Source of the DNA: a virus
Virus record (IMG/VR): IMGVR_UViG_3300043788_000114
Span: 74,517-138,516 of that record
Length of the DNA stretch: 64,000 nucleotides
Direction: 5' to 3' (one strand)
How positions within the stretch are numbered: position 1 is the first letter of the stretch; each line of letters starts with the position of its first letter. This document shows positions 587-10,880 of this stretch, piece by piece. The notes under the pieces were generated by a model that did not search any database, was not told where the DNA came from, and saw only the letters and a list, made by a program, of their open reading frames with translations. Made by a program: the position numbers and the translations under genes.

Positions 587-606
587 CTCAGGCCGGGGAT
601 TTTTTT
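581..606 (+). terminator. Intrinsic terminator directly upstream of the tRNA array
   Basis: CCCCGGC-TCAG-GCCGGGG stem-loop followed by A and 7 T. Confidence 0.9.
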
Positions 607-619
607 GGTCTTTGAAAAA

Positions 620-694
620 GCGGGTTTAAGCTAGTTGGCAAACTGCCTGCCTCCAAATCAGGACTCAGGGGTTCGATTCCTCTAACCCGCGCCA
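620..694 (+). tRNA. tRNA-Trp(CCA)
   Basis: Acceptor GCGGGTT/AACCCGC, loop CT-CCA-AA, TTCGATT T-loop, encoded CCA. Confidence 0.9.
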
Positions 695-695
695 T

Positions 696-771
696 CGCGA
701 CGTAGCTCAGGTGGTGGAGCGCCGATCTCATAAGTCGGAGGGCGAGGCTTCGAGTGCCTCCGTCGCGACCA
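696..771 (+). tRNA. tRNA-Met(CAT), elongator or Ile2 type
   Basis: CGCGACG/CGTCGCG, loop CT-CAT-AA, CCA end. Lacks initiator hallmarks (1:72 is paired, no GGG/CCC stem). Confidence 0.9.
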
Positions 772-777
772 AGTTTT

Positions 778-872
778 GCCGGAATCCTCGGGCGAGGCGC
801 TGGGATTTATAACCCCGGTTGTTGTCGGTAGATTGCCGATGTGCGAGGGATCATACCCCTCTTCCGGCCCCA
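778..872 (+). tRNA. Atypical tRNA with TAT anticodon (Ile by anticodon) and a long variable arm
   Basis: GCCGGAA/TTCCGGC, D hairpin CCTC-GGGC-GAGG, loop TT-TAT-AA, V-arm GTCGGTA-GAT-TGCCGAT, T-arm GAGGG-ATCATAC-CCCTC, CCA. Confidence 0.75.
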
Positions 873-874
873 GT

Positions 875-951
875 GAGCGCGTCGTATAGCGGCTGATTAT
901 ACCTGCCTCTTAAGCAGGCTGACGCTGGTTCAAATCCAGCCGCGCTCACCA
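875..951 (+). tRNA. tRNA-Lys(CTT)
   Basis: GAGCGCG/CGCGCTC, CCTGC-CT-CTT-AA-GCAGG, TTCAAAT, CCA. Confidence 0.9.
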
Positions 952-958
952 AAGTTTT

Positions 959-1044
959 GGGATCGTACTCGAATTGGATGCAGAGACCTGACTTTTAATC
1001 AGCGGGGAAACCCAATGGGGGTTCGAGTCCCCCCGGTCCCACCA
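959..1044 (+). tRNA. tRNA-Lys(TTT) with an extended variable arm
   Basis: GGGATCG/CGGTCCC, loop CT-TTT-AA, extra hairpin GGG-GAAA-CCC, TTCGAGT, CCA. Confidence 0.85.
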
Positions 1045-1048
1045 AGTT

Positions 1049-1125
1049 GCTCCCGTATCGGCGCTGTCTTCTAAACAGCAGGCCGTAGACGGATGACGCG
1101 GGTTCGACTCCTGCCGGGAGCGCCA
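1049..1125 (+). tRNA. tRNA-Arg(TCT), non-canonical (no D hairpin)
   Basis: GCTCCCG/CGGGAGC, 7-nt linker, GCTGT-CT-TCT-AA-ACAGC, 18-nt variable region, TTCGACT, CCA. Confidence 0.85.
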
Positions 1126-1131
1126 TGTTTT

Positions 1132-1209
1132 GCCGCTGTACCTCACCCGCCTCCTAAGCGGGATTCGAGTAACTGGATGATGCCGGTTCAACTCCGGCCA
1201 GCGGCACCA
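1132..1209 (+). tRNA. tRNA-Arg(CCT), non-canonical (no D hairpin)
   Basis: GCCGCTG/CAGCGGC, 7-nt linker, CCCGC-CT-CCT-AA-GCGGG, 19-nt variable region, TTCAACT, CCA. Confidence 0.85.
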
Positions 1210-1214
1210 GTTTT

Positions 1215-1291
1215 GCTGCCGTACCGGGTCGCCCTCCGAAGGCGAATACCGTAGATGGAGAAGGCAGGTTCGAGTCCTGTCGGCAGCGCCA
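1215..1291 (+). tRNA. tRNA-Arg(CCG), non-canonical (no D hairpin)
   Basis: GCTGCCG/CGGCAGC, 7-nt linker, TCGCC-CT-CCG-AA-GGCGA, 18-nt variable region, TTCGAGT, CCA. Confidence 0.85.
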
Positions 1292-1295
1292 GTTT

Positions 1296-1373
1296 GCAGG
1301 GTTAACTCAGTCCGCTCAGAGTGCCTCTCCTACAAAGAGGAAGCCGCAGGTTGAAATCCTGCACCCTGCACCA
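1296..1373 (+). tRNA. tRNA-Val(TAC)
   Basis: GCAGGGT/ACCCTGC, CCTCT-CC-TAC-AA-AGAGG, T-loop TTGAAAT, CCA. Confidence 0.85.
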
Positions 1374-1378
1374 AGTTT

Positions 1379-1453
1379 GCCGGTCAAGCACATGCGGATG
1401 TGTACTCCCTTGGTAAGGGAGAGGCAGAGAGTTCGATCCTCTCGACCGGCCCA
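1379..1453 (+). tRNA. tRNA-Thr(GGT)
   Basis: GCCGGTC/GACCGGC, CTCCC-TT-GGT-AA-GGGAG, TTCGATC. The 3' end is one nt short of NCCA. Confidence 0.85.
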
Positions 1454-1457
1454 GTTT

Positions 1458-1532
1458 GCCGATGTAGCTCAATGGGAGAGCATTCCCTTGATAAGGGAAA
1501 GGTCAGTGGATCGGTACCACTCATCGGCACCA
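1458..1532 (+). tRNA. tRNA-Ile(GAT)
   Basis: GCCGATG/CATCGGC, TTCCC-TT-GAT-AA-GGGAA, T-loop ATCGGTA, CCA. Confidence 0.85.
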
Positions 1533-1549
1533 AGTGTAGAATTGCAGGC

Positions 1550-1876
1550 ATGGCTCAATGGGAAGTGACTATACGCGCAAACATTCTCATCACAGACGAT
1601 GATGATGACGAAAACCAGTTTGCTGAGCAGTACACTTTCATCTGGTCCGCGCCCGACTTCATTTCGGCAGTGATGTCAGTCCAGCAGAAGCTCGACACTT
1701 TGAACGAGCGCACGAAGAAGAAGTGGGAAGAGACTGCTCGCAAAGCACGATTCATGGAAGAATACAACATCGTCGGGTTGATCGAAACCGATCACGTGCT
1801 ATTCGGCGACAAGTGGATAGATGAGTTCGTAGAACGAGGCGTAATAGATCGCAATTATGCCGAAGATGAAAGTTGA
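1550..1876 (+). CDS. Acidic hypothetical protein inside the tRNA array
   Basis: ORF from ATG 1550 (MAQWEVTIRAN...) fills the gap between tRNA-Ile and tRNA-Gly. Confidence 0.65.
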   Translation: MAQWEVTIRANILITDDDDDENQFAEQYTFIWSAPDFISAVMSVQQKLDTLNERTKKKWEETARKARFMEEYNIVGLIETDHVLFGDKWIDEFVERGVIDRNYAEDES

Positions 1877-1951
1877 GCGGGTGTCGTCCAACGGTAGGGC
1901 CACAGCCTTCCAAGCTGTTGACGAGGAGTTCGAATCTCCCCACCCGCTCCA
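1877..1951 (+). tRNA. tRNA-Gly(TCC)
   Basis: GCGGGTG/CACCCGC, ACAGC-CT-TCC-AA-GCTGT, U73, CCA. Confidence 0.9.
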
Positions 1952-2022
1952 TCACTCTCCGGAATAAAATCTGGAATAATTTGTGCTCGGAATTTCGATT
2001 TCTCCCGTGCTAAACTGCGCTC

Positions 2023-5939: not shown

Positions 5940-7645
5940 ACCGTCACCTCAAACAAAGGCTGGCTCTTCCCGTGCTTCTCCAAATAGCGACGCGCCAGAT
6001 TCTTGATGCGATCAGGATCGAGTTGCAACTTTTCTACCAATTCGGCGTTGGGATCACGGATACCTTTGATCTGCTGCTCCTTCACGCCGTTTACTTCGAC
6101 CATGAACGGATCGGAGCCTTCGTCGCTGACCATGAAGTAGACGTTGACCGGATTCTCCTGCCCGTCCCGCCAGACGCGGCCAATGTTCTGCTCGTGGACC
6201 CCCGGCGACCAGTCTAATTCACCAAACACAACCATGTTGCAACTGCCTTGCAGGCCGTCGAGCCCAGCCCCGGCGCGCAGCGACATGATCAGAACCTTCG
6301 CTTCGCCGGAGATGAACCTCTTTTTTGCTTCTTCTTTCTGGGGGATGGATTCCTGCCCAGTGTACATCGCAAACGGAATGTCTTTGAATTTGTCCCTCCA
6401 GATCGCGTACACCGCGTGGTGCCAGCCGTAGAGAACGACCTTTTCCCCAGACTCGACGAGCAACTTGACGAACTCAGCCACGTAAGGAGCTTTGGCAACG
6501 CCTGTCGCTTGGCGGAGCCGCCAGTCAAACTCCTCGGCTGCGCGCATCTTGTCGAGCCCCGTGCCGCCAGCCTTCAAGAGCATTTCCGCCAACTCCGCAC
6601 ACGTCTTGCTGACTTGTTCGAGCGCGTAAAGATCGGCGTCCACGTGCTGCACATCGGAATAGCATGGCGGCAGTTCCCGGCCAACTTCCTTGCGGGTTCT
6701 CCGCAACATCAGACCGGCCTCACGCATATAGGAACCGAATTCTGCCGGAGAGTGGATAGTGGCTTTGTCGCTCGATCCTCCGGAAGAGCACCATTCGGTA
6801 AAGAACTCATCAGCGGAGCCGAGAGCGCCGGGAGAGATCGTCTCCATCACGTTGTATATCTCACCGCCATAGTTGTAAATTGGCGTTGCGCTCATGCCCA
6901 TGCGGAACTGAACGCTGTCGGCAATATGCTTGGCCGCTTCATAGCGATTACTTCCCCCATGCCTGAGTTCCTGCACCTCATCCCAGATCACAGATCGCGA
7001 CGTCCTTGCGAGGGTGTCGGCCCATCCGGACAACTTGCTGTAGCTCAGGATCGCAACATCAGGATAAGGAATAGTGTGACCTCGTTTCCTCGTCAGATCG
7101 TATGGCTGACCTTTGTTGATCACCTGAACCGCAAGCCACGGAGCAAACTTCTCCAGCATGTTCTTCACTTGGATCGGAAGATGCGTAAGCGTCACATAGA
7201 TCGCCGGACGAGTTCTTGGATCGCTCAGCGCCATAAAGGCCACGATGGTCTTTCCCAGCCCCACGTCATCGGCCAAGAGCAGAGAGCCGGTGGTCAGAAA
7301 GAGTGACGCCGCGACCGTTTGGTACTCGCGTTTTTCGCAGTTAATCTCGAACGCCAGAGGAGCCTGTTGCGCGCTCAGGAATTTGTCAACCAGAGCCATC
7401 TTCTCGCGATACTGCTTTGCCATCGTACTGATTTTATCGAGGCTTTTGCTCTCCAGCGGGTAGCGCTCCAAAAACCATTCCACATCGCGGCAGTTTTCCG
7501 GTGTCATCGAAATGGTGAGCAGCCCGACTCGACTCTTGTTGACTTTTGGGAAGACACGCTTGAATCGCAAAGCGACATGCGGAAGCAGTTTGACACCGAT
7601 CATTCTGCCATCCGTCGACACTTCAATTCTCCCGTAAGTCTTCAA
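5936..7645 (-). CDS. SNF2-family SF2 helicase
   Basis: ADDVGLGKT, DEVQ, SATP, LRRT, GAGLDGLQ, QNIGRVWRDGQ. Confidence 0.92.
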   Translation of the reverse strand: MKTYGRIEVSTDGRMIGVKLLPHVALRFKRVFPKVNKSRVGLLTISMTPENCRDVEWFLERYPLESKSLDKISTMAKQYREKMALVDKFLSAQQAPLAFEINCEKREYQTVAASLFLTTGSLLLADDVGLGKTIVAFMALSDPRTRPAIYVTLTHLPIQVKNMLEKFAPWLAVQVINKGQPYDLTRKRGHTIPYPDVAILSYSKLSGWADTLARTSRSVIWDEVQELRHGGSNRYEAAKHIADSVQFRMGMSATPIYNYGGEIYNVMETISPGALGSADEFFTEWCSSGGSSDKATIHSPAEFGSYMREAGLMLRRTRKEVGRELPPCYSDVQHVDADLYALEQVSKTCAELAEMLLKAGGTGLDKMRAAEEFDWRLRQATGVAKAPYVAEFVKLLVESGEKVVLYGWHHAVYAIWRDKFKDIPFAMYTGQESIPQKEEAKKRFISGEAKVLIMSLRAGAGLDGLQGSCNMVVFGELDWSPGVHEQNIGRVWRDGQENPVNVYFMVSDEGSDPFMVEVNGVKEQQIKGIRDPNAELVEKLQLDPDRIKNLARRYLEKHGKSQPLFEVTV

Positions 7646-9377: not shown

Positions 9378-10880
9378 TTAGAAAGGCGCTTCTTCGTCCG
9401 GCTCTTTCGTCTGACTGTAATTCATCTTTGCCTGCTCAGGTCCTTCCTTCTTCTTTTTCTTTCCGTGCCCATATTGCGGTTGCTGGATCGGAGCATTGTC
9501 CACCTGCTGGAGCGACAAGTCATCCTCGCCGCCAACGATCCGATAGTAAATGGGAGGGCAAGCTACCGAACTTTTTGTATGGAATTGTACCTTCCTGATC
9601 AGGTTCTTCGGCTCAACTTCAGGATTCTCGACCGTCAGGCCCATGCCCCACTCTTTCCACCCGTTGATACCTCCGCCGCGCGCCCGGTCGAAGATGGTGC
9701 CTTTTTCGCTTTTCGAAAGGTGGTGAACGATGCACACCTGACACTTGCCTTCACGCTCGATTCTTTTCGCTGCTGCAAGGACTCTGGATGTTTCCTGATT
9801 GTCGTTCTCGTTGCCTTCCCAAAGACTTCGGAAGACGTCGAAGAACACAAACTCAATCTGCCGTTCTTTGATGTTCTCAATGATGTCAACCAGATCGGGA
9901 TTGCTTTGCAGTGTCCAGCTTTCACGCTGAGAGCGGGTGTTGACGTAGAGATATTCTTCAAGGTCGATCATGCCGATGAACTCTTTAACGCCGATGTCGG
10001 CACCGTTGAGCATTCTCTTCAATCTGCTTTGGGAGAGACCCGGAGCGTCTTCTCTGGCGACTAACCCGACTTTCACGCGCTTGGGAATGCGATGCTGAAA
10101 CCACGCTACCCCGGAGACCAAGTGCAAAGCCAGATCGAAAATGAGAACGGACTTTGAAGTGCCTGAGTCGCCAAGGATGAGGCCGTTGCCTTCTTTCTGA
10201 ATAATCCCGTCGACCGTCCATTCGATCTGCTCTGGCGCGGAGGCGATGAATGTGCGGGCTCCGATGAAGAACGGCTCTGGATTGCGAATGAGAGCGCGGC
10301 TCGACTCGCGCAGAGACTCAGTTTCTCGCTCAAGAGACTCAAGTGTGCTGATAGCATCTTCACTCTGGTCCGCCGCTCGGGCGATGGTGGCCGAGCAGAT
10401 GCCCATAAGACGGCGTGCAATGCTTTTATCCTTGCAAATCCGGATGTAGGCGTCGATGACTGGGCGGCGGGGAAGACCCTCGGTGAGTGAAGCCAGATAG
10501 GCAACACCGCCGATAGACTCCACTTCCTTGAATTTCGACAACCGCGCGCACAGCGTCACGATGTCGATGGTTTGACCATCTTCTTCAAGTTCGGCCATGC
10601 GCAGGTAAATGCGGCGATGAGAGTCGAGGCTGAAGTCATCCGGCGTGAGAGTCAGAGCGGTTTCTTTAATTGCGCGCTGATCGAGCAGGATGGCCCCGAG
10701 GATCGTCTTCTCCGCGTCGATGTTTGCGGGGAGACCAGCTTCGAGAGTTAAATCAGGAACCGGCTTGCGCGCCTCTCGCTGACGCTCAGGCGGAGCATTG
10801 TAGCTGGGCGCGGGCGCTTCTTCCTGCGGCGGCTCAGGAGTTTTATCGTCTGCGAAGAAATCTGTTGCGTCGACCGTCAT
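9378..10880 (-). CDS. Replicative helicase: DnaB N-terminal domain plus RepA/AAA_25-type ATPase
   Basis: P.NIDAEKTILGAIL...DDF...HRRIY, GGVAYLASL; Walker A GDSGTSKS; VHHLSK...RARG. Confidence 0.85.
   Translation of the reverse strand: MTVDATDFFADDKTPEPPQEEAPAPSYNAPPERQREARKPVPDLTLEAGLPANIDAEKTILGAILLDQRAIKETALTLTPDDFSLDSHRRIYLRMAELEEDGQTIDIVTLCARLSKFKEVESIGGVAYLASLTEGLPRRPVIDAYIRICKDKSIARRLMGICSATIARAADQSEDAISTLESLERETESLRESSRALIRNPEPFFIGARTFIASAPEQIEWTVDGIIQKEGNGLILGDSGTSKSVLIFDLALHLVSGVAWFQHRIPKRVKVGLVAREDAPGLSQSRLKRMLNGADIGVKEFIGMIDLEEYLYVNTRSQRESWTLQSNPDLVDIIENIKERQIEFVFFDVFRSLWEGNENDNQETSRVLAAAKRIEREGKCQVCIVHHLSKSEKGTIFDRARGGGINGWKEWGMGLTVENPEVEPKNLIRKVQFHTKSSVACPPIYYRIVGGEDDLSLQQVDNAPIQQPQYGHGKKKKKEGPEQAKMNYSQTKEPDEEAPF

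Follow-up and report, generated by a model that had tools for sequence, protein, structure and literature searches.

Three tRNA-Arg genes of a phage share a conserved non-cloverleaf design in which two internal segments are probably in swapped order

The 64,000-nucleotide stretch of DNA analysed here (the window) covers positions 74,517 to 138,516 of IMG/VR virus record IMGVR_UViG_3300043788_000114. Near its start, at positions 1,049 to 1,291, it carries three tRNA-Arg genes, W1, W2 and W3, which are three copies of a real and conserved arginine tRNA design that is not a cloverleaf. In this design a 3-bp helix lies around the anticodon arm, every nucleotide of the canonical tRNA core is conserved, and the genes sit in a phage tRNA array whose other arginine tRNA leaves their codons unread. 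We estimate at roughly 0.8 the probability that W1, W2 and W3 are functional phage arginine tRNAs for AGA, AGG and CGG, and that they are members of a large family whose molecules have two internal segments in exchanged order. From their context it is very probable that the three genes function in translation. The L-shape is probably kept, because none of the bases that make up the core is missing and their spacing is right.

The genes occupy a gap, at 1045–1295, in an array in which ARAGORN calls eight tRNAs and Rfam, at gathering thresholds, calls seven, with none in the gap; its contents were read by eye and indexed by script. Each gene has the 7/7 acceptor pairs, discriminator and encoded CCA of an elongator tRNA-Arg, a 5-bp anticodon stem with a 7-nt loop that includes U33, C35 and an arginine anticodon, and a 5-bp T stem closed by a standard TTCRA loop (TTCGACT in W1, TTCAACT in W2, TTCGAGT in W3). 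All seven acceptor pairs of W1 are Watson-Crick, its anticodon stem is paired 5/5 and its T stem 5/5 with one G.U; its anticodon loop is CTTCTAA and its discriminator G. Every stem of W2 is Watson-Crick (loop CTCCTAA, discriminator A), and the stems of W3 are fully paired, its T stem including one G.U (loop CTCCGAA, discriminator G). An earlier reading of these genes from their letters alone (the sequence-only reading) had called the acceptor, anticodon and T arms perfect; they are indeed paired throughout and followed by CCA, but the T-stem G.U pairs of W1 and W3 take something from that description.

What is absent is the D hairpin of a cloverleaf (positions 9–26). The acceptor stem is separated from the anticodon stem by exactly 7 nt in all three genes, and the interval from anticodon stem to T stem measures 18 nt in W1, 19 nt in W2 and 18 nt in W3, as the sequence-only reading had reported. 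The short linker has the form UA-Y-C-N-N-N, and its C-N-N pairs with an N-N-G past the anticodon arm: the linker triplets CGG, CTC and CGG of W1, W2 and W3 are complementary to CCG, GAG and CCG. Between this helix and the T stem, and adjoining both, lies the sequence U-A-R-N-N-G-G-A-N-N-A followed by one base, which is C in W1, U in W2 and G in W3.

A helix of three pairs in a fixed register is expected by chance in about 5% of sequences, according to an arithmetic estimate. Relatives were collected with a degenerate pattern made from W1–W3, in which G-UA-R-NN-GGA and the T-loop were fixed. This pattern found at least 118 viral loci; 79 of 124 matches parsed as the swapped layout, 65 of these were distinct, and removal of L023, which lay in a false frame, left a first set of 64. 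For this and the second viral scan described below, counts are among the matches listed and understate the size of the family. Scanning bacterial and archaeal genomes gave 18 parsed hits, of which L193 was dropped, and 15 further distinct genes brought the family to 79; what was left of the 118 and 97 loci consisted of ordinary tRNAs or other sequence. The anticodons in the first set were all for arginine (UCU 46, CCU 12, CCG 4, UCG 1, ACG 1). The positions to be compared were anchored without the use of complementarity, as the four linker bases adjoining the anticodon stem and the four that immediately precede UA-R, and the counts agreed with those from a MAFFT alignment of the 64 distinct sequences (A1).

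All three pairs were formed in 64/64 sequences. The pair between A1 columns 12 and 43 was always C:G. Columns 13 and 42 held U:A in 28 sequences, G:C in 24, A:U in 10 and C:G in 2, with 36 double changes, and columns 14 and 41 held C:G in 34, G:C in 25 and U:A in 5, with 30 double changes. With the genome genes added, the helix was complete in 79/79 genes, in 12 triplet types of which CTC:GAG was the commonest, and the mutual information of the middle pair (1.72 bits) was the highest of all column pairs and exceeded that of every ordinary stem pair. The covariation score of the whole structure in A1 was reached by 0/500 shuffles, and sliding the partner by 1–3 columns lowered the proportion of paired cells from 93.7% to 47% or less. 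RNAalifold, given the alignment as sole input, predicted exactly the same structure de novo, helix included, and the minimum-energy RNAfold structure of W1 also contains the helix, with a modest z-score of −1.41. On these results, the support for the linker-variable helix is equal to that for any stem of a tRNA. The complementarity and the compensatory change that the sequence-only reading had seen in three genes thus hold in 64/64, 79/79 and, in the second set, 95/96 of the relatives.

The fourth linker position behaves differently from the three pairs. It forms a standard pair in 21/79 genes and a C.A or A.C combination in 48/79, and among its mismatches A.C, C.A or A.A predominate in both the 79-gene set and the 96-gene set introduced below. 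In the window, W1 alone has an extra pair there (G1082:C1062), A1145 of W2 sits opposite C1166, and G1228 of W3 sits opposite A1248. The position behaves like the non-Watson-Crick 26.44 combination, and the 3-bp parse is right.

The same variable-region triplet could be drawn into another structure. The genes might be tRNAs of a class II-like type, with the D-arm lost and a long hairpin in the variable arm (CCG-TAGA-CGG in W1), and on paper such a hairpin can be drawn for W1 and W3. Its three pairs hold in 25, 34 and 63 of the 64 sequences, with 63.5% of cells paired and with both sides changed in none of the pairs, and the triplet pairs with the linker in 64/64. We give this possibility almost no weight; with 63.5% paired cells and no compensatory change, the class II variable-arm hairpin was ruled out.

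A second viral scan bears on the element that follows the helix. Its pattern fixed the linker GUAUC, the anticodon loop CUUCUAA and the T-loop and left the D-loop-like motif free; it found at least 119 loci and 123 matches, of which 122 were in tRNA frame, and these yielded 96 distinct UCU genes, 62 of them new. Anchored on the last UA-R-N(1-3)-GG in the region, the set contained that motif in 96/96 genes, all three helix pairs in 95/96, an A directly after GG in 95/96 and an A at the penultimate, A21-like, place in 94/96. The R of the motif and the base before the T stem were concordant in 96/96 (A:U 92, G:C 4). In the 79-gene set the same Levitt-like pair was A:U in 63, G:C in 7 and G:G, the class to which W3 belongs, in 9, with none discordant. 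Two elements that the first pattern had left free, the U8/A9-like TA of the linker and the A21-like A, were each invariant (64/64). The sequence-only reading had proposed a D-loop-like motif behind the helix and a covarying Levitt-like pair, and both find support in these unforced relatives; its more general suggestion, a D-stem-like helix and a D-loop-like element placed 3′ of the anticodon arm, is borne out in well over 100 distinct relatives, by covariation and by conservation where no pattern forced it. In W1, the proposed equivalents within the connector are A14, G15, G18, G19, A20 and A21, followed by a C48-like partner of G15.

The identity elements of Escherichia coli arginyl-tRNA synthetase (ArgRS) are A20 in the D-loop and C35. 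An A directly follows GG in W1, W2 and W3. Arginine genes that were found with a covariance model and not with a pattern have GGA in 4/4 cases, and genes of other identity in the swapped layout (Ile UAU, Ile GAU and Lys CUU) have GGT in 3/3. The A after GG thus looks arginine-specific, and we infer that it would occupy the three-dimensional place of A20. The three genes of other identity lie at L014:5506-5582 (Ile(UAU)), L091:4514-4590 (Ile(GAU)) and L053:11003-11080 (Lys(CUU)). L053 also holds two Arg-type variants with 16-nt connectors, at 7435-7514 and 10185-10265, and for the second of these the helix cannot be drawn cleanly.

The most likely model explains the arrangement as a change in the order of two blocks. 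In a normal tRNA, the 3′ strand of the D-stem leads by way of position 26 to the anticodon stem, and the 5′ strand of the D-stem leads to A14, R15, G18 G19 and A21; the folded core contains the pairs of U8 with A14 and of R15 with position 48, and its GG is docked on the T-loop. The chain of the rewired genes, as we shall call them, would read in standard numbering 1–9, 22–43, a short spacer, 10–21 and 48–76. Past the acceptor stem and U8-A9, the chain would run straight into what is usually the 3′ strand of the D-stem and on into the anticodon arm. After the anticodon arm and a spacer of 2–7 nt would come the usual 5′ strand of the D-stem, then an arginine-type D-loop (U, A14, R15, N, N, G18, G19, A20, N, N, A21) and one more base that would pair with R15 as position 48 does, with the T arm next. 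Both strand continuities of a normal tRNA would thereby be retained, with only the order of the two blocks changed. Such a molecule would keep the L-shape with GG docked on the T-loop, could be charged by the host ArgRS through the A after GG and C35, and would supply decoding for AGA, AGG and CGG.

Alternatively, the genes might resemble the mitochondrial tRNAs that have no D-arm. The helix would then lengthen the anticodon helix, and the 12-nt connector would be flexible, giving a Y-shaped or floppy molecule that has no canonical core or elbow contact and may still translate. In its topology the helix does extend the anticodon arm, with an internal loop between the two, and an engineered tRNA-His without the whole D-arm is, according to the available part of its description, accepted by E. 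coli translation (PMC11551756). Covariation of the elbow pair was not found, and the search for it gave no informative cases. A flexible linker, however, needs no invariant TA, U-A-R, GG, A and A at fixed spacing, and these invariant bases are those of the canonical core. The R:N pair is concordant in 79/79 and 96/96 genes, the standard TTCRA T-loop is retained, and GG and the other signature bases of the D-loop, which mitochondrial-type tRNAs have lost, are present. We therefore regard a D-arm-less molecule as unlikely, and favor the swapped order of segments with its canonical core. As a separate observation, in the ordinary tRNA-Arg(ACG) of the same genome (C1:71491-71566, beyond the window) the D-loop has GA in place of GG and the T-loop TTT in place of TTC, a combination that looks like an A19:U56 version of the elbow pair.

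The gene context agrees with a role in decoding. ARAGORN found 29 tRNAs in the phage genome; the tRNA-Arg(ACG) just mentioned is the one ordinary arginine tRNA among them, and none reads AGA, AGG or CGG. A search of the whole genome with covariance model R1, which was built for the family, returned W1, W2 and W3 as the only rewired genes, the next match scoring 29 bits. In 122 crude open reading frames (ORFs), AGA was counted 282 times, AGG 287 times and CGG 458 times, which makes 1027 of 2328 arginine codons, or 44%. Domains of the ArgRS core, the CCA-adding enzyme, RtcB and RNA ligase were sought in the 138.5-kb genome and none was found, with controls detected in 8–14 of 14 reference genomes. 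Since the phage has no ArgRS by this search, charging would fall to the host enzyme, which fits the retention of the A after GG and of C35. The spacers, CCA-(A/T)GTTT(T), are alike beside ordinary and rewired genes in the window array.

Two viral contigs, L001 and L002, carry near-identical tRNA arrays. In L002 an ordinary tRNA-Arg(UCU), at 971-1045, is flanked by Lys(UUU) and the rewired CCU gene; in the window and in L001 that slot is taken by the rewired UCU gene. Bradyrhizobium isolate genomes show the reverse mix, in that Arg(ACG) is rewired and CCU, UCU and CCG are ordinary, in arrays of 13–22 tRNAs per 8 kb. Because of this exchange in one slot and of the reverse mix in Bradyrhizobium, the ordinary and rewired forms look interchangeable. 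And because those isolate genomes carry it, the design is not confined to free phage genomes.

This context also bears on the idea that the genes encode tRNA-like decoys or regulators and not adaptors, which might absorb a tRNA-targeting nuclease or act as a sensor. The charging and decoding of W1–W3 are inferred, and phage tRNAs are known, from the available parts of three reports, to counter tRNA-cleaving defences (PMC10264068, PMC11555353, PMC11464382). A decoy would have no need, however, to fill exactly those arginine codons that the ordinary tRNA-Arg(ACG) of the phage leaves unread, nor would its codons be expected to make up so large a share of the total; an ordinary tRNA-Arg(UCU) takes the slot of the rewired gene in the related array, and acceptor stem, discriminator, CCA, U33 and C35 are all retained. 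We consider decoys or regulators very improbable. A different proposal leaves the adaptor function intact and concerns the purpose of the layout. Without an ordinary D hairpin, the arginine tRNAs might escape enzymes, of the host or of rival phages, that use the D-arm or core to recognise or cut a tRNA; the contacts with synthetase and ribosome would be kept, and arginine decoding would survive the destruction of the host tRNAs. Such a counter-defence is a tentative suggestion, and we think it rather doubtful.

The sequence-only reading had warned that standard tRNA finders may miss these genes, and they do. ARAGORN called 0/3 of W1–W3, and the Rfam tRNA model RF00005, at its gathering threshold of 29 bits, found 0/3 with standard filters and 1/3 with permissive filters (W2, at 40.3 bits, in an alignment that deletes the D-arm, 15 model positions, and inserts 16 nt in the variable region). 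W1 matched tRNA-Sec (RF01852) at 31.1 bits, below the gathering threshold of 47, and is not a tRNA-Sec by that measure; for W3 no Rfam match was listed up to an E-value of 10 with permissive filters. ARAGORN detects 4/79 family members, with ends about 15 nt off, and 0/3 of the Bradyrhizobium copies. R1, a covariance model of the kind that the sequence-only reading had proposed for a homolog search, separates the classes: members score at least 68 bits, ordinary tRNAs at most 42, and rewired genes of other identity in between. The covariation of linker and variable region that was predicted for homologs was found in the relatives collected above.

One 82-nt member of the family matches 263 records of cultured phages, 252 of them over at least 80% of the query; most are phages of Escherichia, Salmonella and Klebsiella, and Felix O1 is included. 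A tRNA feature lies under the match in 2 of the 40 records listed, and one such feature is given without an amino acid, with its neighbours named. W1–W3 themselves had three weak partial matches only in a similarity search of cultured phages, and a search with window positions 600–2000 matched ordinary tRNAs only.

That the genes are skipped by gene finders could also mean that they are decayed tRNA pseudogenes, and the available text of a paper on a Felix O1-like phage lists three possible pseudo-tRNAs (PMC4837284), among which a rewired gene might be counted. Decay is, however, at odds with intact stems, with compensatory changes in more than 100 distinct sequences and with the maintenance of three isoacceptors in related phages, and we see hardly any chance that it explains W1–W3.

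Several points weigh against our interpretation of W1–W3 as functional tRNAs with swapped segments. The sequences of the family are related, and the counts are not counts of independent events. Since the first pattern forced G-UA-R-NN-GGA and the T-loop, the conservation of those bases speaks from the second set alone, and that set itself forced the linker GUAUC and the anticodon loop; one of its 96 genes has a mismatch in the helix. The R1 scores of W1, W2 and W3 (77.1, 83.2 and 74.9 bits) are partly by construction, the three genes being in the training alignment of R1. As single unmodified sequences, W2 and W3 fold otherwise in RNAfold, which yields the proposed fold for W1 alone. No covariation of the elbow pair G19:C56 was found, as the members seen all carry GG and C56, and when rewired UCU genes with U at T-loop position 56 were sought, all 82 loci were protein-coding look-alikes, with 0/82 in tRNA frame. 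Because elbow covariation is absent and all members seen have GG with C56, it is conservation that suggests the L-shape. Finally, the case for W1–W3 is built on sequence and context. A search for sequencing runs listed 24, among them a best DNA run with 0.30 of sampled words and five RNA runs with 0.05 each. Metatranscriptome contigs from four RNA runs contain parts of ordinary tRNAs of the array (about 874-952, 963-1044, 1377-1498 and 1893-1920), and most continue into unlike sequence; none covers 1049-1291, which, as these are contigs, is uninformative either way.

Table 1. Positions of the rewired genes, their parts and the array that contains them (window coordinates unless a contig is named)
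Feature	Position	Strand	Basis or remark
tRNA array, ordinary and rewired genes	620..1951	+	ARAGORN and sequence parse
W1, rewired tRNA-Arg(UCU) gene, 77 nt including encoded CCA	1049..1125	+	sequence parse
W1 linker TATCGGC: U8/A9-like TA, pyrimidine, helix 5′ strand CGG (1059-1061), position-26-like C (1062)	1056..1062	+	parse
W1 anticodon TCT, predicted to read AGA	1070..1072	+	parse
W1 helix 3′ strand CCG, partner of 1059-1061	1083..1085	+	parse, alignment, RNAfold
W1 D-loop-like connector U-AGACGGATGA-C	1086..1097	+	parse and family conservation
W2, rewired tRNA-Arg(CCU) gene, 78 nt including encoded CCA	1132..1209	+	sequence parse
W2 helix 5′ strand CTC	1142..1144	+	parse
W2 anticodon CCT, predicted to read AGG	1153..1155	+	parse
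W2 helix 3′ strand GAG	1167..1169	+	parse and alignment
W2 D-loop-like connector U-AACTGGATGA-T; Levitt-like pair A:U	1170..1181	+	parse
W3, rewired tRNA-Arg(CCG) gene, 77 nt including encoded CCA	1215..1291	+	sequence parse
W3 helix 5′ strand CGG	1225..1227	+	parse
W3 anticodon CCG, predicted to read CGG	1236..1238	+	parse
W3 helix 3′ strand CCG	1249..1251	+	parse and alignment
W3 D-loop-like connector U-AGATGGAGAA-G; Levitt-like position G:G	1252..1263	+	parse
Rewired tRNA-Arg(ACG), Bradyrhizobium isolate genomes	L133:5175-5250, L138:6090-6165, L171:5218-5293		dense arrays; other Arg tRNAs ordinary

The virus record is 138,516 bp long with 54% G+C and is rated complete by CheckV, and the window contains phage replication genes (helicase, primase, topoisomerase and HNH endonucleases). 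At 487-606, just upstream of the array, a short ORF is followed by a hairpin and a T-run, and the array of L002 is likewise preceded by a short ORF and a terminator-like stretch. An HNH endonuclease gene (2023-2661) directly follows the array; a Felix O1-type record has HNH or endonuclease VII genes interspersed among its tRNAs. Other members of the array are unusual in ways of their own. A tRNA-like gene at 776-870, 94–95 nt in length, has an anticodon-type loop with UAU (Ile, AUA), a long extra hairpin 5′ of the T arm and the unusual T-loop sequence ATCATAC; in L001 and L002 ARAGORN reports the counterparts as tRNA-Ile(tat) of 94 nt, and it misses the copy in the window. The 86-nt tRNA-Lys(UUU) at 959-1044, also present in L001, has an extra hairpin of about 10 nt in its variable region according to the Rfam alignment, and a long variable arm is unusual for lysine tRNAs. 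A tRNA-Thr(GGU) at 1379-1452 is called by ARAGORN alone and is absent from both Rfam searches (gathering and permissive); by eye, its D-arm has a 6-bp stem and a 4-nt loop with no GG, and CCC stands at the 3′ end coordinate given by ARAGORN. Beyond the window, at C1:62365-62442, ARAGORN reports a 'tRNA-???' with a two-base anticodon (ct).

If W1–W3 work as we propose, ordinary bacterial ArgRS, EF-Tu, RNase P and ribosomes would accept a chain whose path through the core is re-ordered, and the L-shape would be independent of cloverleaf connectivity. Phage tRNA counts and analyses of codon supply would then be systematically short of arginine tRNAs, and orthogonal tRNAs could be built on the design as a natural scaffold; should the counter-defence idea also be true, that scaffold would be a ready-made non-cloverleaf one already accepted by bacterial translation. 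The cultured carriers among the 263 matched records, including Felix O1 and phages of E. coli, Salmonella and Klebsiella, make the design directly testable. In a literature search for which most subscription journals were beyond reach, we found no description of D-stem strands that flank the anticodon arm. According to the available text of a 2024 paper, every known bacterial tRNA is a cloverleaf, and cytosolic tRNAs vary in structure by the size of their arms alone (PMC11551756). The available text of a 2020 review of non-canonical tRNAs leaves phages unmentioned and places loss of the D-arm in mitochondria only (PMC7609411).

The closest known counterparts of W1–W3 are the ordinary class I tRNA-Arg genes of bacteria and phages (RF00005), such as C1:71491-71566 and L002 971-1045. 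The two kinds share the 7-bp acceptor stem, the 5-bp anticodon stem and 7-nt loop with U33 and an arginine anticodon, the standard T arm, the discriminator, CCA and a place in the array, together with, as proposed for the rewired genes, U8/A9, A14, R15, G18 G19, A20, A21 and a partner for R15. They differ in that the rewired genes have the D-stem 5′ strand and the D-loop past the anticodon arm, so that the D-stem encloses that arm; in that the rewired helix has 3 pairs and a mostly mismatched fourth position; and in that the rewired genes have no separate variable loop of 4–5 nt. The red alga Cyanidioschyzon merolae has circularly permuted tRNA genes, and processing restores a cloverleaf RNA. 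Those genes and the rewired ones both have an order of segments unlike that of the textbook molecule, but the rewired genes keep the usual order of the acceptor strands, and it is the mature RNA that would be rewired. The engineered 'mini HisT' of E. coli is, in the available part of its report, an example of bacterial synthetase, EF-Tu and ribosome using a tRNA without a D hairpin; it is artificial and, unlike the rewired genes, dispenses with the whole D-arm (PMC11551756). Among natural molecules, the mitochondrial tRNAs without a D-arm (animal tRNA-Ser(AGY) and those of nematodes) resemble the rewired genes in having no D hairpin and a short connector between acceptor and anticodon (PMC7609411). 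As far as the available text of the same review goes, however, they have lost the D-loop together with the contact it makes to the T-loop, and need adapted partner proteins, whereas the rewired genes keep the D-loop nucleotides in a new location, and, being found in phages and in bacterial arrays, must use the ordinary bacterial machinery.

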